From IMG/VR virus record IMGVR_UViG_2548876863_000017: 9,264 nucleotides of DNA; one strand, given 5' to 3'. The stretch comes from a virus. Its lineage: Duplodnaviria > Heunggongvirae > Uroviricota > Caudoviricetes. Below the pieces are notes generated by a model, which was given only the letters and a program-made list of their open reading frames with translations, had not been told where the DNA came from and ran no database searches. Below are positions 2,148 through 9,264 of this stretch, one piece after another (position 1 is the first letter of the stretch; each line of letters starts with the position of its first letter). A program made the position numbers and the translations under genes.

Positions 2148-3080
2148 ATGGACAACGACAAAATTGATCAACACAGCGACGAAATTGAAGTTGAGAGCGA
2201 AGAAAAAGAGCGCGGCAAAAAAATAGAAATAGATGAAGACCGACTCCCCTCCCGGGCGATGGCAATTCATGAGCATATCCGCCAGGATGGTGAAAAAGAG
2301 CTGGAACGCGACGCAGTGGCGCTACTGTGGTCAGCCATTGCGGCGGGTCTGTCGATGGGCGCTTCGTTACTGGCAAAAGGGATATTTCAAGTCGAACTGG
2401 AAGGTGTGCCGGGCAGCTTCTTGCTGGAGAATCTCGGTTATACCTTTGGTTTTATTATCGTCATTATGGCCCGCCAGCAATTATTTACCGAAAATACCGT
2501 GACTGCGGTACTACCCGTCATGCAAAAACCGACAATGAGCAACGTCGGCTTACTTATACGGTTATGGGGCGTCGTGCTGCTGGGTAATATTCTCGGGACA
2601 GGTATTGCGGCGTGGGCATTTGAATATATGCCTATCTTCAATGAAGAAACTCGCGATGCATTTGTCAAAATCGGCATGGATGTGATGAAGAACACCCCCA
2701 GCGAGATGTTTGCCAACGCGATCATTTCCGGCTGGCTGATCGCCACTATGGTTTGGATGTTTCCTGCAGCGGGTGCGGCAAAGATTGTGGTGATTATATT
2801 GATGACCTGGCTTATTGCCCTGGGTGACACCACCCATATCGTGGTCGGTTCTGTTGAAATCCTCTATCTGGTGTTTAACGGTACGCTGCACTGGAGCGAT
2901 TTCATCTGGCCCTTCGCACTACCTACTTTAGCGGGGAACATCTGCGGCGGCACCTTTATCTTCGCGTTAATGAGTCATGCACAGATTCGTAACGACATGA
3001 GCAATAAGCGTAAAGCAGAAGCACGCCAAAAAGCAGAACGTGCGGAAAACATTAAGAAAAATTATAAAAACCCGGCATAA
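2148..3080 (+). CDS. yfdC: YfdC, inner-membrane protein of the formate/nitrite transporter (FNT) family
   Basis: 310-aa product with an acidic, charged N-terminal extension followed by multiple hydrophobic helices, consistent with an FNT-type channel. Length and position (between mlaA and argW) match E. coli yfdC as I recall it. Confidence 0.8.
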   Translation: MDNDKIDQHSDEIEVESEEKERGKKIEIDEDRLPSRAMAIHEHIRQDGEKELERDAVALLWSAIAAGLSMGASLLAKGIFQVELEGVPGSFLLENLGYTFGFIIVIMARQQLFTENTVTAVLPVMQKPTMSNVGLLIRLWGVVLLGNILGTGIAAWAFEYMPIFNEETRDAFVKIGMDVMKNTPSEMFANAIISGWLIATMVWMFPAAGAAKIVVIILMTWLIALGDTTHIVVGSVEILYLVFNGTLHWSDFIWPFALPTLAGNICGGTFIFALMSHAQIRNDMSNKRKAEARQKAERAENIKKNYKNPA

Positions 3081-3155: not shown

Positions 3156-3230
3156 GTCCTCTTAGTTAAATGGATATAACGAGCCCCTCCTAAGGGCTAA
3201 TTGCAGGTTCGATTCCTGCAGGGGACACCA
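3156..3230 (+). tRNA. argW: tRNA-Arg, anticodon CCU (argW); probable prophage attachment site
   Basis: I folded it by hand. Acceptor stem GUCCUCU pairs with AGGGGAC (one G-U). Anticodon stem AGCCC/GGGCU has loop CUCCUAA, giving anticodon CCU. T-arm is UGCAG-GUUCGAUUC-CUGCA with the GTTCGA motif. Discriminator A and encoded CCA at 3228-3230. Total 75 nt. A P4-type integrase gene follows immediately. Confidence 0.92.
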
Positions 3231-3355: not shown

Positions 3356-3391
3356 GTGGATAAAATAATTTTACCCACCGGATTTTTACCC

Positions 3392-4546
3392 ATGCTCACC
3401 GTTAAGCAGATTGAAGCAGCAAAGCCGAAAGAAAAACCATACCGCCTTCTCGATGGTAATGGCCTGTACCTTTATGTCCCTGTATCCGGGAAAAAGGTAT
3501 GGCAGCTTCGCTATAAGATTGACGGTAAGGAGAAAATCCTGACCGTCGGAAAATACCCGCTTATGACTTTGCAGGAGGCAAGGGATAAGGCATGGACCGC
3601 GAGGAAAGACATCTCGGTTGGCATCGATCCGGTAAAGGCGAAAAAGGCTTCGTCTAACAACAATTCCTTTAGTGCGATTTACAAGGAATGGTACGAGCAC
3701 AAGAAGCAAGTATGGTCAGTAGGGTATGCGACTGAACTTGCAAAAATGTTTGATGACGACATTTTACCTATCATCGGCGGCCTTGAAATTCAGGATATTG
3801 AGCCAATGCAACTGCTGGAAGTAATCCGCAGATTTGAAGATCGCGGTGCAATGGAACGAGCCAATAAAGCCCGCAGAAGATGCGGCGAGGTTTTCCGTTA
3901 CGCTATTGTCACCGGAAGGGCTAAATATAACCCGGCACCTGACCTTGCTGACGCCATGAAGGGATACCGCAAGAAAAACTTCCCGTTTCTTCCTGCAGAC
4001 CAGATCCCGGCATTTAACAAAGCACTGGCAACATTTTCAGGAAGTATCGTATCGCTCATTGCGACCAAAGTTTTACGCTACACAGCCCTAAGAACGAAAG
4101 AGCTTCGTTCCATGCTATGGAAGAACGTCGATTTTGAAAACAGGATTATCACCATCGACGCCAGTGTGATGAAGGGTCGCAAAATTCATGTGGCTCCTAT
4201 GTCAGACCAGGTGGTTGAACTTCTCACTACGCTAAGCTCTATCACCAAACCAGTATCAGAGTTTGTTTTTGCCGGGCGCAACGATAAGAAAAAGCCAATC
4301 TGCGAGAACGCGGTATTACTTGTGATCAAACAAATCGGCTATGAAGGTCTGGAAAGCGGTCACGGATTCAGGCATGAATTCAGCACGATTATGAACGAGC
4401 ACGAATGGCCTGCTGATGCTATTGAAGTGCAACTGGCACATGCCAACGGCGGATCTGTGCGCGGGATTTACAACCATGCTCAGTATCTCGATAAGCGCAG
4501 AGAAATGATGCAGTGGTGGGCTGATTGGCTAGATTGGAAAATATGA
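3392..4546 (+). CDS. intS: P4-type tyrosine integrase (site-specific recombinase), IntS-like
   Basis: N-terminus MLTVKQIEAAKPKEKPYRLLDGNGLYLYV... is the typical P4-family arm-binding domain. The C-terminal catalytic domain has an HxxR motif (HGFRHEF) and a candidate catalytic Tyr (GIYNHAQYLDK). It lies immediately 3' of a tRNA. The track ORF starts 12 codons earlier (ATG 3356), but ATG 3392 gives the canonical family N-terminus and a 384-aa product. The intS symbol is by analogy to the K-12 argW-adjacent integrase. Confidence 0.88.
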   Translation: MLTVKQIEAAKPKEKPYRLLDGNGLYLYVPVSGKKVWQLRYKIDGKEKILTVGKYPLMTLQEARDKAWTARKDISVGIDPVKAKKASSNNNSFSAIYKEWYEHKKQVWSVGYATELAKMFDDDILPIIGGLEIQDIEPMQLLEVIRRFEDRGAMERANKARRRCGEVFRYAIVTGRAKYNPAPDLADAMKGYRKKNFPFLPADQIPAFNKALATFSGSIVSLIATKVLRYTALRTKELRSMLWKNVDFENRIITIDASVMKGRKIHVAPMSDQVVELLTTLSSITKPVSEFVFAGRNDKKKPICENAVLLVIKQIGYEGLESGHGFRHEFSTIMNEHEWPADAIEVQLAHANGGSVRGIYNHAQYLDKRREMMQWWADWLDWKI

Positions 4547-4607: not shown

Positions 4608-5699
4608 GTGATTAAAAAAAACCTAGAATCCATACAATTTCTTAGAGCGGTGGCAGTTTTGTTGGTGGTTCTATTCCACTACCGTTTTGATGCAGAATCT
4701 TTGATAGCAAACTCAAAGATAATTTTCTTCAATGGATCTATTGGGGTCGACCTTTTCTTTGTTATAAGTGGATTCATAATTTACTATGTTACCGACAACA
4801 ACAAAAAAGGCATTTTCGAGTCAGCATCGTTTATATTAAAGCGAGTAATTAGGGTTTTACCGCCTTATCTTTTAATATCATTTATTTTTGTTTATTTCGG
4901 TAATAAAGATTATATAAAGTTAATACAGTCAATCTCATTCATCCCATTATCTAATAAAGAACCTCCTTTTTATGGATACCCCTCTCTTGTTGTTGGATGG
5001 TCGCTTAACTATGAGATTTACTTCTACATCCTTGCGGCCATTGGGATAATGTTTTTTGGAAAGTGCAAATGGCTTGTTATATCAACATCAATAGTGTCAT
5101 TGATAATGGTGCTGGCATTAATAAACGGAAACATATCATTATCTACCAGTGTGGACTACAACATTAATAGTAGTTACCTTTCGATGGCAACAAATAGTAT
5201 TATTTTAGATTTCACTTTAGGTGTTGCGTGTGGATACTTAGCTAAGCGTGACAATAAGGTTAGCAATACAGCTGTAATAACACTATCTATAGTTTCTATT
5301 GCTATATTTATTATGTGTCTAATGGGTATTTTTAGGTCTGAGCATGGCCCTATGTTTTGGGGGTTGTCGTCATTCTTTTTGGTGCTATCATTTATTGAGC
5401 TAGAAAAGAGAAGCATTTTATATTTTCCTAAGATTCTTATAGTAATTGGCAACATGTCATTTTCAATATATTTAGTTCACATTCCGTGTCTTGTGCTATG
5501 TTATTATTTATTCAATAACATACATCCACTTTTCAACCTAGATAATAAACCTTTACTTATATTTCTATCATCATTAATAGCAACATGCATTTCTTCGTTT
5601 TTTTATTATCATTTAGTAGAGCGATATCTTTGTGAATATTTGAGAAAGTCCATTTTCTCAGCATTATTTATATTTAAAATTCATTCAAGATCTAATTGA
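4608..5699 (+). CDS. Acyltransferase-3 (AT3) family integral membrane protein; candidate phage-encoded O-antigen O-acetyltransferase (Oac/OafA-like) for lysogenic conversion
   Basis: 363-aa polytopic hydrophobic protein. The N-terminal helix carries the AT3 signature spacing of a conserved Arg and His ([14 protein letters not shown]: R13, 10 residues, H24). Position between int and tailspike is where Sf6 carries oac and P22 carries gtrABC (from memory). Start is GTG at 4608: an in-frame TGA sits at 4596-4598 and no in-frame ATG precedes the conserved motif. Only a weak SD (GAGA). Very AT-rich. Substrate and function are inferred. Confidence 0.78.
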
Positions 5700-7640
5700 T
5701 ATATACTTCTTAGCTGTCGACATCCATGGATAGGTTGTCGACGGAAGGTTTTTAAAATGAATTATTGTTTCTCCATTTGTTCCTATTGTCACATATGAGT
5801 TATCTGCACCAAAAGAAATTGTATTAAATCTTGTCATCCTTCCTTGGTACAAAACAGAATTAGAACCATCTGTTGATATTGCTCTAAATTCATATGTACA
5901 ATCACCGTCAAAATATATAGGAGTTATCGCAAATACCTCTTCTCCAGTGTAAGTCAGAGAGTCAATGCGATAGTTGCAGCAGTACTTAACATTATCATCA
6001 ATTGGGATTTCAGCAGTAGGATAAACAAATGGTAGCTGTGTTTTTAAGTTAATTAAGACTGAATTCTTGAATGTATCAGTATTAACAAGTTTTATATTTG
6101 GAAGAGATGTTCCATATTCTGAAACAGATATTTCAGCATTAACAAGGCCATACATGACAACCATGTCATGTATGTTAAACATCCATCCACCATCACCTAT
6201 CTTTAGAAGATGTGATTTAAAGTCGCCATCTGTTTTTCCCAATACTGTTTTAACATTCTCACAGTATATATTATTGAGATTTGTACTAAAGTTCTCACCA
6301 TTAATAGTGATCGCTCTATTCATTTGCTCGAAGGCGCTTCCAGAGAATGTTACATTCTGTGTATTATTTTGAGGGTAAGATGAATTGAATGGTTCAGAAA
6401 GTAAAACACCTAGATCCCTACCTGATATTTTACCTTTGAATGCAACGTTATTTGTTGCACGACCAAGGAATACAGGATACAAGCCTTTAACAGTATCATG
6501 GTCATCAATTATGCAGACATCATATTCAGGGTAAAATCCCTGAACTGAACTTATGGCGATTGCACACCTATAAAATGACACGTCTTTTATATAACACCCT
6601 AACGTAAAGCATCTAAGATTGAAGCAATTTGAAATACCAATGAATTGTATTCCTTCAAATGAAGAGTTTCTCACAATTGCATTGGCGATACAATCCTGAT
6701 CAGAAAGTCCTGATGTATTTGATGTGATCTGGCCTGATAAAAAATACCCTGTTTCAAAAAGAGGAGTAGTTGTAGTGTCAAGATCGGAAACAATTGTTGT
6801 CTGATCACCAACGAAAGCAGTATTAGAAGAAAATATAGTTTTCTGATTTAATGTATAAACGTAATTACCCAATCCTATTTTTCTTCGCTGACCATAGCTA
6901 CCTAACCCTGCGGCTATTGCTGCTTTCTGAAATGCAGGAGAAGAATCGAAATCCGTCTTTTGCTTCGCTGGATATGCGCCAAACCTATCAACATGCAAAG
7001 GAAGTGTCGTAACCCATTTGCTACCAAGCGAATCAATAAACCATGAACCACCATCTGTTTGACCTGGAATTCCAGTTTCACCAGTTCTTCGCATGATATT
7101 TGTTGCATGTGCAGTATTAAATGCGCCTACAGAATCAGCGTGATACTTTACAATAGTCATTGTTTTAATTGCAGATGGAAATGAAGAGGATAATGCAGTT
7201 TCAAAATCTGGAACATACATTGAAGATGCCAAATCATTCATATTGGCATTACCATAGCCAACCAAATAGGCACCATAACTGCCGGCAAGATCTTGCCTTA
7301 ATTGGTCAGGGTCATACTTCAACACATTAGGAAAATAGAACTGCTTCGCACCATATGCATCATAAACAGCCATAGAATGGCCTTGCACGGTAACGAATTT
7401 GGCAATCTGTCCGTTATATACCGGGTAACCAGCAGCGTTAATGATGATTGGTTGCGATACAGGAACATGAGAGCCGTCTTCGTTCTCCACATAAACCTGA
7501 ATCTGGTTTTCAGGATTTACCGGGTCAGTGTCAATTTTACCGATATAAATTTTGCCATTGGCAACCGCTTTAAAAGAACGAGCCATAGTGAAGAGTTGCG
7601 AAGGCATGCTTACCACAACATTTGCGGTGATATCTGACAT
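5685..7640 (-). CDS. Tailspike protein: P22-family N-terminal head-binding domain fused to an unrecognised, probably beta-helical, receptor-binding/depolymerase C-terminal domain
   Basis: From the ATG at 7640 (GGAG SD 7-8 nt upstream) the product begins [113 protein letters not shown]. From memory this matches the conserved N-terminal domain of P22 gp9 and the Sf6/HK620 tailspikes. The remaining roughly 540 residues do not resemble the P22 gp9 body as I remember it. The track ORF starts 16 codons upstream (ATG 7688), which I consider an over-extension. The 3' end overlaps the acyltransferase 3' end by 15 bp. Confidence 0.85.
5714..5753 (+). terminator. Possible weak intrinsic terminator for the acyltransferase transcript, embedded in the 3' coding end of the convergent tailspike gene
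   Basis: CTGTCGAC (5714-5721) can pair with GTCGACGG (5737-5744) as an 8-bp stem with one G-U. The 15-nt loop contains the perfect palindrome ATCCATGGAT. A TTTTT run at 5749-5753 follows, but 4 nt after the stem. Starts 15 nt after the acyltransferase stop. Geometry is imperfect for a canonical terminator. Confidence 0.25.
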
Positions 7641-7761
7641 TTCATTGCTCCAGACGAATGATATGATGCAACCATGATGTGATTGCATACCGAAATGGTA
7701 CTATTGAGTATTTATCCAGTAGGTTACGATGCCATTCCACCCAACTGGTGAGGCATCAAGG
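7641..7761. promoter_or_regulatory. Divergent regulatory region between the tailspike and mnt-like genes; candidate promoters and operator
   Basis: 121-bp AT-rich spacer between divergent start codons. Inverted repeat ATGCAA (7666-7671) / TTGCAT (7683-7688) with an 11-bp spacer. Repeated ATGAT(G) motifs at 7658-7667 and 7674-7679. A CACC-N5-GGTG dyad at 7738-7750 loosely resembles the CCAC/GTGG half-sites of the P22 mnt operator as I recall it. No promoter hexamers could be assigned confidently. Confidence 0.4.
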
Positions 7762-8028
7762 ATGTACAGCAAATACGACGAGGCGCAGTTTCACTTGAGA
7801 CTTCCGCATGAACTCCACGCGAAAATTAAGCAGCGTGCGAAGATGAATAACAGATCGCTGAACTCAGAGATAATTGCAGCGATTGAAGAATCATTGGATA
7901 AACAAAGCTCTGCATCAGTTTACATTGACGATGCAGAGCGTATGGCAGAACAACAATCTGATATGGTTAAGAAAATTGTCTTTGATACGCTTAAGACCAT
8001 GTATAGCAATAATAAAAAGGAAACATAG
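7762..8028 (+). CDS. mnt: Mnt-like ribbon-helix-helix (Arc/MetJ superfamily) repressor
   Basis: 88-aa product MYSKYDEAQFHLRLPHELHAKIKQRAKMNNRSLNSEIIAAIEESL...DDAERMAEQQSDMVKKIVFDTLKTMY. It aligns by eye with P22 Mnt as I remember it, both in the N-terminal RHH DNA-binding part (FNFRMPMEVREKLKFRAEANGRSMNSELLQIVQDAL) and the C-terminal tetramerisation helix (NDAERLADEQSELVKKMVFDTLKDLY). GAGG SD at 7750-7753, 8 nt upstream of ATG 7762. The track ORF starts at ATG 7729, 11 codons upstream; I prefer 7762 from the homology. Confidence 0.82.
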   Translation: MYSKYDEAQFHLRLPHELHAKIKQRAKMNNRSLNSEIIAAIEESLDKQSSASVYIDDAERMAEQQSDMVKKIVFDTLKTMYSNNKKET

Positions 8029-8098
8029 AAATCTAGTTTCCGGCTAAAATGGCATTACCTTCATGATATCCTGTGAAAAACTAAGGAGAGTTAACCAT

Positions 8099-8584
8099 AT
8101 GAAAAAATCACTGTTAATTATCCCGCTTCTGCTGGTTGGATGCGCAAAAGTAAGTGACTATCAAGCAAGTTGCGAACAACGCTATCAAAAGCTTAGCGAT
8201 ATGGCTAATTGCCTTGATGCCAGTGTGAAGAACGACTCACGCATGGCATCAGCACCAACACCTAAGCTGTATGTCCTTGCTGCAAAGATGCTCGGGCAAG
8301 GTGTCGATGAAGGCAAGATAAGTGACGCACAGGCAAGACTTGAGCTTCAGAATCTTTATGTTCAATTACAAAGCCAAGAACAAGCCCAACAAATAGCACA
8401 AAGCCAAGCATTCCAGCAGGCTTTATTGAATTATCAGGCTGTAAACACAATGCAAGCGATCGAGCAAAAAGCGCGCCAGCCTGTTATAACTCAACCTTAC
8501 CCAACACGCGTTGACACATATACAAACTGCAATTCAGGATTTGGAAACACGGTAACATGCAACAGTAGCAGTAATATCAGGTAG
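8099..8584 (+). CDS. Predicted outer-membrane lipoprotein of unknown function, Gln-rich; moron in the slot where P22 carries sieA; candidate superinfection-exclusion or lysogenic-conversion gene
   Basis: Strong SD AAGGAG (8083-8088), then ATG 8099. The product starts MKKSLLIIPLLLVGCAK: a type II signal peptide with lipobox LVGC, and Ala at +2 after the lipidated Cys, which predicts outer-membrane sorting. The mature part has a Gln/Ala-rich probable helical segment (LQSQEQAQQIAQSQAFQQALLNYQ) and a Cys-containing C-terminus. No family recognised. The track ORF (8063) is extended upstream by 12 codons. Confidence 0.75.
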   Translation: MKKSLLIIPLLLVGCAKVSDYQASCEQRYQKLSDMANCLDASVKNDSRMASAPTPKLYVLAAKMLGQGVDEGKISDAQARLELQNLYVQLQSQEQAQQIAQSQAFQQALLNYQAVNTMQAIEQKARQPVITQPYPTRVDTYTNCNSGFGNTVTCNSSSNIR

Positions 8585-8598
8585 TTATATCTTATCTT

Positions 8599-9264
8599 TT
8601 ATTGCTGTTCTGCTGTAATTTGACTTGAAAGTATAGGGCGTATCGCATTTGCAGCATTATTTAGCGCTCTTTCATAAGCTGGCGTTCCAGTTTTAGTGTT
8701 TGCCAGACGTAAGAGAGCATTCCTTGCTGCTTTGGACTCATACAAGCGCATCATTGCACCAAAACCAGCCTCAAGCCCCATTGATACGCCAAGGGTCGCA
8801 GTTGCGCCAATCGTCCTTATCCTGTTGGCTTGCGATTGCCCCGTCTGAGTTACTACATTTGCGGTGTCTGACCTTGCTGTTTGCTGTAGAACTTCATGAA
8901 GAGCATCAAGCTCTTTTATGTGCTTTCCAGAAAAAATAGTGTTGTAAATTTCACCGCCTGACTGAGATTTCAGCTTATTAACTTCAGTGATGAACTTGGC
9001 TGGAGAGTCCCCGGCCTTTTCCGCTATTTTGCTGACGTAAGCTGCACGCATAGCATCTTTCCCCTTATCATCCAGTGCGCTCCAGATTCGTTTCACGTCA
9101 GATGGTTTTCTGCTTAATACAACGGTATTTATAAGTTCAGGACTGGCTTCACTGCTTGCCTTGTTGAGCTTGTTGGCAATGTTTTTATTAAGCACCTTAT
9201 TATAAACGTTGTAAGCGTACAGCGAGGGCCGTATTGACGGGGATGTGTTATTCAGCTGGCAGTG
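8599..9264 (-). CDS. 3' portion of a phage late gene (5' end beyond the right edge); possibly an ejection/injection protein (P22 gp16-like) by synteny
   Basis: I translated the - strand frame from 9264 down to the track start (GTG at 9195) and found no stop (...[33 protein letters not shown]...), so the track ORF start is an artefact of the window edge. Stop is at 8599-8601. Same orientation as the tailspike and convergent with the lipoprotein. The functional call is from position only; I do not recognise the sequence. Confidence 0.5.

Follow-up and report, generated by a model that had tools for sequence, protein, structure and literature searches.

A described relative of the locus studied here is the immI region of phage P22, which consists of mnt, its operator Omnt, the promoters Pmnt and Pant, and the genes arc, sar and ant, and in which Mnt keeps ant silent. 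P22 Mnt also represses the ant gene of a superinfecting P22. Mnt is set apart from Arc by a C-terminal tetramerisation helix, and according to work from the Sauer laboratory His6, Asn8 and Arg10 of the P22 Mnt beta-strand reportedly read the operator. Villafane et al. (2008, PMC2629481) gave this variable region the name "ant moron" and described ST64T, ST104 and Para1 as carrying only mnt and one unknown gene there. The same authors suggested that the ant moron, Mnt and Arc may affect the level of tailspike, which in P22 is affected by transcription through immI (PMC2629481). The mnt-only moron is on record for phages L, ST64T, ST104 and ST160 (PMC2629481, PMC8022706), and for phage L Zaworski et al. 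(2020, PMC8022706) asked whether the mnt-only region is a remnant or has acquired a new function.

Another described system lies at the same place in a P22-like prophage. BTP1 lysogens make STnc6030, an antisense RNA over 700 nt long, at the junction of gene 16 and the tailspike gene, and it confers BTP1 superinfection immunity (Owen et al. 2020, PMC7067206). STnc6030 resembles the module described below in being a lysogen transcript from this junction with an orientation antisense to the late operon, and differs from it in being a non-coding RNA. The BTP1 junction is only 155 bp long, has no sequence similarity to our module and carries no mnt, and because mnt is absent we ruled BTP1 out as a homologue of the mnt module.

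The stretch of DNA that we analyzed, called the window below, is 9,264 nucleotides long and runs from E. coli chromosome into a P22-like (Lederbergvirus) prophage, of which it holds the right end. The chromosomal part holds yfdF, mlaA (1099-1854), yfdC (2148-3080) and tRNA-Arg(CCT) (3156-3230). The prophage part holds an integrase gene (3356-4546), a gene for an O-acetyltransferase of the Acyl_transf_3 family (4608-5699) and, on the minus strand, the tailspike gene (5685-7640), which matched Pfam Head_binding (2e-66) and PHROG tailspike families and which combines a P22-type head-binding N-terminus with a different receptor-binding body. The Shine-Dalgarno sequence of the tailspike gene, GGAG at 7648-7651 on the minus strand, lies 7 nt before the ATG at 7640 and is kept in all of the types that we aligned. 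The mnt homologue (7762-8028) and a lipoprotein gene (8099-8584) follow on the plus strand, and the 3' part of a gene for a gene-16-type DNA-transfer (ejection) protein (8599-9210; phrog_770, phrog_29117) lies on the minus strand. This last open reading frame is cut at 9210. From 9211 onward the sequence diverges from the intact gene of a related locus (L037), and positions 9211-9264 are 100% identical to an ISEc8-flanking end in another (L117). The prophage copy in the window is defective because an insertion sequence cuts gene 16.

With the tailspike gene starting at 7640 on the minus strand and mnt at 7762 on the plus strand, the intergenic region is 7641-7761, a spacer of 121 bp. We searched the whole window by tblastn with P22 Arc, P22 Ant and CUS-3 Ant and found nothing besides mnt itself, and the 121-bp spacer offers no room for arc. 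Neither sar nor any other Rfam family was detected in 7500-8700, at the gathering threshold or at E<=1. The features of a complete P22-type immI region, namely arc, ant, sar and a strong Pant overlapped by Omnt, are all absent here. Instead the locus has the form of an mnt-only ant moron, with mnt as the sole immI gene, placed between gene 16 and the tailspike gene and divergent from the latter. Since ant is absent, the sole established function of P22 Mnt, the silencing of ant, cannot apply in cis. The gene map of the preliminary description, an mnt-like gene separated by 121 bp from the start of the tailspike gene, neither arc nor ant, and a lipoprotein gene after mnt, was correct in each of these respects.

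The 88-aa product of 7762-8028 matched Pfam Arc (PF03869, E 9.3e-15) over residues 7-49, the ribbon-helix-helix domain, and Pfam Repressor_Mnt (PF11423, E 1.2e-12) over residues 57-81, the C-terminal tetramerisation helix. Its best relatives of solved structure were P22 Mnt (1MNT, 8.1e-19, residues 6-78) and the Mnt tetramerisation domain (1QEY, 1.1e-6), and its identity to P22 Mnt was 45-47%. This homology is far beyond chance and, judged by its sequence, the product is a true Mnt homologue, for which the Mnt C-terminal domain predicts a tetrameric state. We rejected the other identities that the preliminary description had considered, a toxin-antitoxin antitoxin or a CopG plasmid regulator: matches to HicB and FitA reached only ~1e-6, no toxin gene was adjacent and the context was that of a P22-like prophage. 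The N-terminal ribbon-helix-helix fold is common to the Mnt homologue, the HicB/FitA-type antitoxins and the Arc/CopG/MetJ autoregulators, and proteins of all these families often control their own expression by way of a palindrome in the promoter. These families, however, lack the C-terminal tetramerisation helix of Mnt, and no toxin partner is present here. Homologues that are now named "partition protein ATPase" ought to be renamed as Mnt-family repressors.

A Shine-Dalgarno sequence for mnt, GAGG, is found at 7750-7753. We took 7762 as the start and rejected a longer open reading frame that opens with the ATG at 7729, since its 33-nt extension measures 32 nt in Buttiauxella (L009) and Citrobacter (L011) and is out of frame there. 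The DNA-reading beta-strand is QFHLR here and HFNFR in P22 Mnt, so that in P22 numbering H6 is replaced by Q and N8 by H while the arginine is kept. These changes would fit an altered specificity and not a loss of binding.

The preliminary description had proposed a comparison with P22-like genomes that lack ant, and in such genomes the placement of mnt beside the tailspike gene recurs. Sf101 and IME10 have the same layout with a 121-bp spacer and with Mnt proteins 95-98% identical to that of the window. The layout is also that of VSe13 (135-bp spacer; Mnt 65% identical by tblastn), Gally (146-bp spacer; Mnt 58% identical by tblastn) and phages L/ST64T and ST160/SE1 (135-bp spacer). Out of 80 close IMG/VR relatives listed, ~62 had exactly 121 bp between mnt and the tailspike gene and none had arc or ant; the larger gaps contained an inserted HNH homing-endonuclease gene or an insertion sequence. 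A 135-bp gap was present in 55 of the 79 VSe13-type loci listed. The tailspike start, spacer and mnt occurred as one contiguous stretch in 223 of 5,426 complete E. coli genomes. A profile-based viral scan returned the same loci as the scan with a single protein, and in a profile search of genome contigs the matches past L016 were mostly distant Arc-like proteins.

The mnt-only phages (L, ST64T, ST104, ST160, SE1, Sf101, IME10 and Gally) have much in common with the window: the same slot between gene 16 and the tailspike gene, an mnt gene running away from the tailspike gene over a spacer of 121-146 bp, no arc, ant or sar, and a palindrome beside the -35 of Pmnt. They differ in their passenger genes, with none in Sf101, orf62 in L and the lipoprotein gene in the window, and L, ST160 and Gally also differ in recognition strand and operator. 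The mnt-only arrangement beside the tailspike gene is therefore not unusual but already known, common and published. As both the gene order and the question of remnant or function are in the literature, the finding is real but ordinary.

The spacers also record where the arrangement came from. In the 135-bp spacers the tailspike-proximal half is homologous to the leader of P22 gene 9, and the mnt-proximal half to the P22 Omnt/Pmnt region. In a single locus (L253) the DNA that separates the operator from the tailspike gene still encodes Ant residues 191-300 (93% identity to P22), a deletion scar. Together, the matching spacer halves and the scar argue that the layout derived from a P22-type immI region through loss of arc and ant. 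The ancestor would have had the P22 order of mnt, Omnt/Pmnt/Pant, (arc), ant and tailspike, and deletion of arc and ant would have joined the control region of Mnt directly to the short tailspike leader. With P22 immI the window still shares an Mnt of the same family with both domains, the same genomic slot, the same spacing of operator to Pmnt -35 and, in the 135-bp types, tailspike-proximal DNA homologous to the gene-9 leader. It differs in having no arc, ant or sar, in its decayed Pant and in its changed recognition residues and operator sequence.

At 7686-7702, the position homologous to P22 Omnt, we found a candidate Mnt operator, CATACCGAAATGGTACT, with the core TACC-N5-GGTA. Alignment of P22, Gally, ST160, L, VSe13 and the Buttiauxella locus L009 placed it one base from the Pmnt -35; the 17-bp P22 Omnt, AGGTCCACCGTGGACCT, likewise stops one base short of the Pmnt -35. 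The aligned loci fell into three classes. The beta-strand HFNFR of P22 goes with the site AGGTCCAC-C-GTGGACCT, the beta-strand QFNLR of Gally, ST160 and L with the perfect palindrome AGACCAC-K-GTGGTCT, and the beta-strand QFHLR of the window, Sf101, VSe13 and Buttiauxella with the consensus RTACC-NAAAY-GGTAC. All three palindromes are at an equal distance from the -35. Because a class-specific site occupies the homologous columns in each case, the operator co-varies with the DNA-reading strand. The Buttiauxella site has the perfect form GTACCAAAATGGTAC, and the candidate operator is an imperfect palindrome with arms of 4-5 bp, of which the left is usually imperfect.

The motif occurred once each in the 38.7-kb Sf101 genome, the window, a 47-kb E. 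coli region and 15 further loci, and was absent from a locus (L267) whose beta-strand is of the QFNLR class. When IMG/VR was searched with the motif only, an mnt start lay 69-81 bp to the right of it in 115 of the 119 loci listed. A symmetric operator beside its own promoter is typical of the Mnt family, and the candidate site would supply one here. We infer that Mnt binds 7686-7702.

Promoters were scored with a simple sigma-70 position weight matrix, for which the best scores in random 135-bp windows of Sf101 had a median of 5.2 and a 90th percentile of 8.5. The Pmnt homologue of the window (7704-7730, plus strand) has a -35 of TTGAGT (7704-7709), 15 nt and a -10 of TACGAT (7725-7730), at a position homologous to the annotated P22 Pmnt. 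Its spacer carries a 2-bp deletion relative to the VSe13, Gally and P22 types. It scored 7.7, within the range of random windows; P22 Pmnt scored 12.7, and the homologues scored 10.1 in Gally, 8.5 in L and ST160 and 7.6 in VSe13. The tailspike-facing Pant homologue (7707-7735, minus strand; -35 ATGGCA at 7735-7730, 17 nt, -10 AATACT at 7712-7707) scored 6.2, as against 16.4 for P22 Pant. In the other mnt-only types the best tailspike-facing candidates reached 4.8-5.3, at positions that were not conserved among the VSe13, L, ST160 and Gally types, and a consensus scan found no minus-strand promoter in the spacer. By these measures Pant has decayed to background.

The spacer also encodes a potential hairpin in the tailspike-sense leader, ATGCAAYCA-N5-TGRTTGCAT (7666-7688, minus strand), with a 9-bp stem and a 5-nt loop. 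Its single mismatch is a G.U pair, on the minus strand only, in 57 of 65 loci and is repaired in 5 loci by either of two substitutions, and one locus (L008) has a double compensatory change. Folding compared with shuffled sequences was not significant (z -0.87), so covariation is the one line of evidence for the hairpin.

The lipoprotein gene lies 70 bp 3' of mnt on the same strand, and a consensus scan of the plus strand predicted no terminator between the two. Its 161-aa product begins MKKSLLIIPLLLVGC, which contains the lipobox LLVGC, and belongs to phrog_6067 (1.4e-109). This secreted lipoprotein matched none of the families of Pfam, NCBIfam or PADLOC, and the annotations in phage records go no further than "hypothetical" or "putative lipoprotein". 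Gally, 720R6 and VSe13 have copies that are 96-98% identical. We compared three contexts for a promoter of the gene's own, and only ~25-45 bp of upstream DNA were common to them. It appears likely from the layout that mnt and the lipoprotein gene are co-transcribed in the window. Control of the lipoprotein gene by Mnt, as envisaged in the preliminary description, is not a requirement of the system. In Gally and VSe13 an oppositely oriented gene stands between mnt and the lipoprotein gene, and RNA-seq of the Gally prophage in E. coli LF82 found the lipoprotein gene and gene 14 expressed in LB with mnt and the tailspike gene at background (PMC9928086 and its supplement).

Over 67 distinct mnt alleles (2,016 pairs), pS was 0.122 and pN 0.016, giving a dN/dS of ~0.12; within the E. 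coli type only, non-synonymous changes per site were 0.20 times as frequent as synonymous ones. A premature stop was present in 1 of 89 mnt loci and the open reading frame was intact in 88. Across 65 loci the 121-bp spacer had a pi of 0.0175 and the four-fold sites of mnt one of 0.126, a ~7-fold lower diversity in the spacer, and 7692-7721 was invariant. The mnt gene is under purifying selection and is not decaying.

The reading that we favor, with moderate confidence, is that the locus is a functional, self-regulating remnant of immI, whose one operator sits at the mnt promoter and which probably also sets the expression of the lipoprotein gene, and that the late operon supplies the tailspike. 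What was retained would be a functional tetrameric ribbon-helix-helix Mnt, one cognate operator abutting its own -35 and the decayed stump of Pant. In the lysogen, Mnt bound to this single site would set plus-strand transcription of mnt, would probably set the level of the lipoprotein moron 70 bp downstream as well, and may also occlude residual initiation toward the tailspike gene; the tailspike itself would be made by late-operon transcription reading through. The sign of this regulation by Mnt is likewise inferred. The suggestion that Mnt is a relic that only autoregulates thus holds in part: an autoregulating remnant is the best fit, given an operator-like site at the Omnt position, and the low dN/dS and the single stop among 89 loci speak against decay.

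Several observations weigh against self-regulation as the whole account. A repressor that acts only on itself has no obvious selective value, yet purifying selection is clear, and our confidence is only moderate because pure autoregulation fails to explain it. In Sf101, IME10 and L there is no co-transcribed passenger gene with mnt. Some further function of Mnt is probably missing from the account. The Pmnt of the window also looks poor, with its 15-nt spacer and a score of 7.7, and the candidate operator is imperfect.

We also considered whether Mnt might be a lysogeny-specific repressor of a spacer promoter that drives the tailspike gene directly, so that both divergent transcripts would rise when Mnt is lost. 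Relative to the Pant homologue the candidate operator spans about -3 to +14, just as Omnt lies over Pant in P22, and in the listed operator-bearing loci the operator and mnt always adjoin the tailspike gene. The influence of immI transcription on the tailspike level of P22 (PMC2629481) would agree with such a role. In Gally, mnt rose 40-fold and the tailspike gene 21-fold in macrophages from the background seen in LB, while the upstream injection gene 12 was unchanged (PMC9928086), a pattern that a shared repressor would fit and that counts against pure self-regulation in so far as a local tailspike promoter could produce it. The joint rise could come from a shared local control region or, alternatively, from read-through out of gene 14, which is on the same strand in Gally and is absent from the window. 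Against the proposal, the tailspike-facing candidates (4.8-6.2 over all mnt-only types) score no better than random windows, far below P22 Pant, and their positions are not conserved, so the sequence offers no support for an Mnt-repressible tailspike promoter, and the consensus scan found none. The mnt module is also intact in relatives in which an HNH gene or an insertion sequence separates the operator from the tailspike gene. An unconventional tailspike promoter may be conceivable, but the rewired promoter that had been suggested for this locus is not visible, and we regard direct repression of the tailspike gene as unlikely.

Rather improbable, in our estimate, is trans-acting immunity, in which the orphan Mnt would act on other P22-like phages of the same operator class, superinfecting or co-resident, by repressing their ant promoter, and would thus keep foreign antirepressor from inducing the prophage. 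P22 Mnt acts in this way on superinfecting P22 (PMC8022706), trans immunity would account for purifying selection despite the missing local target, and the L253 fragment indicates that ant was once linked to the RTACC-NAAAY-GGTAC class. However, among the listed 119 operator-bearing loci and the 80 and 79 (~160) protein-found IMG/VR loci, no intact arc or ant adjoined an operator of this class; the L253 fragment was the only trace. A second operator copy that might serve as a trans target was absent from the 38.7-kb Sf101 genome, the 47-kb E. coli region and 16 loci, and the ant-like genes that VSe13-type loci carry on the other side of mnt have no operator copy.

We give little credence to the view that mnt is a functionless leftover that has not yet decayed, in the window copy or in general. 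Its attractions are that the literature is undecided for phage L (PMC8022706), that gene 16 of the window prophage is cut by an insertion sequence, and that deletion of mnt from Gally left macrophage survival unchanged in the sole assay done (PMC9928086). In addition, the recognition strand is changed by R13I in two alleles, one of which (L071) has an insertion sequence between mnt and the tailspike gene. Selection on the protein speaks against it, as do the intact reading frames, an operator kept in step with the recognition strand in three classes, spacer DNA much less diverse than the four-fold sites, and the presence of the module in the viable phages Sf101, IME10, L and Gally. Very improbable is the idea that the transcript matters more than the protein, with a Pmnt RNA that runs against the late operon where gene 16 meets the tailspike gene and hinders the late or tailspike mRNA of incoming relatives, while Mnt merely autoregulates; STnc6030 acts at the same junction in BTP1 (PMC7067206), and mnt and the lipoprotein gene run against the late operon with no terminator predicted before gene 16, but the low dN/dS reflects selection on protein sequence and not on RNA only, BTP1 has neither mnt nor sequence similarity here, and the Gally lysogen shows no more than background levels of mnt RNA in LB (PMC9928086).

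The self-regulating remnant therefore remains the reading that we prefer. The locus carries little weight as a discovery, with the gene, its family and its exact order all present in published, sequenced phages. What our analysis adds is the purifying selection on an mnt-only module, the co-evolution of operator and recognition strand in three classes and the loss of Pant, and together these suggest that the orphan Mnt does something useful. The residual interest lies in why an orphan Mnt is selectively maintained. We advance tentatively, as a possibility, that Mnt has a function independent of the antirepressor in hundreds of ant-less P22-like prophages, either as a silencer or environmental switch, operating during lysogeny, of transcription entering the tailspike gene from its junction with gene 16, at which the co-induction of mnt and tailspike in Gally inside macrophages hints, or as a guard in trans against a foreign antirepressor.

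The 121-bp spacer between mnt (7762-8028, plus strand) and the divergent tailspike gene (5685-7640, minus strand) contains further elements with dyad symmetry besides the candidate Mnt operator. Immediately before mnt, an inverted repeat, GATGCC-N18-GGCATC, has its arms at 7728-7733 and 7752-7757 and spans both the -10 element and the Shine-Dalgarno sequence of the gene. We found this repeat in all types of relatives that carry mnt without arc or ant, namely those of the window, VSe13, Buttiauxella, Gally, ST160 and L, whereas it is not conserved in P22. It could be a second protein site or a leader structure, both of which are possible.

On the tailspike side, the minus-strand leader can form a hairpin with a 9-bp stem and a 5-nt loop (7666-7688). 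In 57 of 65 loci its single stem mismatch is a G.U pair, and is so on the tailspike strand only; in 5 loci either of two substitutions repairs the mismatch, and one locus (L008) carries a double compensatory change. The folding energy of this hairpin was not significant. Unlike the window, P22 and the mnt-only relatives with a 135-bp spacer have another small hairpin at this position.

High identity of the tailspike to known phages was confined to roughly the N-terminal 115-130 residues, the head-binding domain. A different module forms the receptor-binding body, and its best PHROG match, over residues 1-462, is a family of tailspikes labelled "colanic acid degradation". Around its stop codon the tailspike gene shares 15 bp (5685-5699) with an O-acetyltransferase gene that runs convergently to it.

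The mnt product and its relatives end in one of two alternative C-terminal tails (7996-8028 in the window). The tail ...TMYSNNKKET accompanies the downstream lipoprotein cassette, while ...ELYKKDSS is found in loci without it, and because tail type tracks the presence or absence of the cassette, the recombination junction of the cassette falls within the 3' end of mnt. In two mnt alleles, one of them in locus L071, the recognition strand has the substitution R13I (FHLILP), which replaces the arginine equivalent to P22 Arg10. In L071 an IS3-family element also separates mnt from the tailspike gene, and this possibly reflects relaxed selection in a degraded prophage. In RefSeq phage records, such as that of Sf101 (NC_027398.1, 14284-14577), and in phrog_795, Mnt homologues commonly go under the names "partition protein ATPase" and "chromosome segregation ATPase"; for a ribbon-helix-helix repressor of 83-88 aa, these labels are an annotation error.

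Both termini of the window are IS ends. Positions 1-54 are 100% identical to one end of IS1A, and 9211-9264 to DNA that adjoins a copy of ISEc8, a member of the IS66 family, in strain OkiPb01684. At 9211 the homologue of gene 16 departs from the intact gene, and since this DNA-transfer protein gene is cut, the prophage copy is defective.

In many VSe13-type loci, a KilAC/ANT-type ant-like gene and an Arc-like gene lie on the side of mnt away from the tailspike, about 1.1-2.2 kb downstream, and are transcribed towards it (L205-L250); locus L253 has such an ant-like gene of 285 aa (1147-2004). The 96-aa "antirepressor" of VSe13 is the C-terminal part of a gene of this kind. No copy of the candidate Mnt operator was found at either the ant-like or the Arc-like genes of VSe13-type loci.

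In some close relatives, an inserted HNH (plus AP2-like) homing-endonuclease gene of 179-180 aa separates the candidate Mnt operator from the start of the tailspike gene (L052, 2969-3508; L076, 3327-3869), and in these the old tailspike 5' end survives as a stub (MSDIT...) adjoining the operator. In L253, a C-terminal fragment of ant (414-743; residues 191-300, 93% to P22 Ant) lies between a candidate operator of the QFHLR class, the beta-strand class of the window Mnt, and the tailspike gene. This fragment is a deletion scar, and it shows that a full immI region, the mnt-arc-ant arrangement of P22, was the ancestor of the mnt-only layout.
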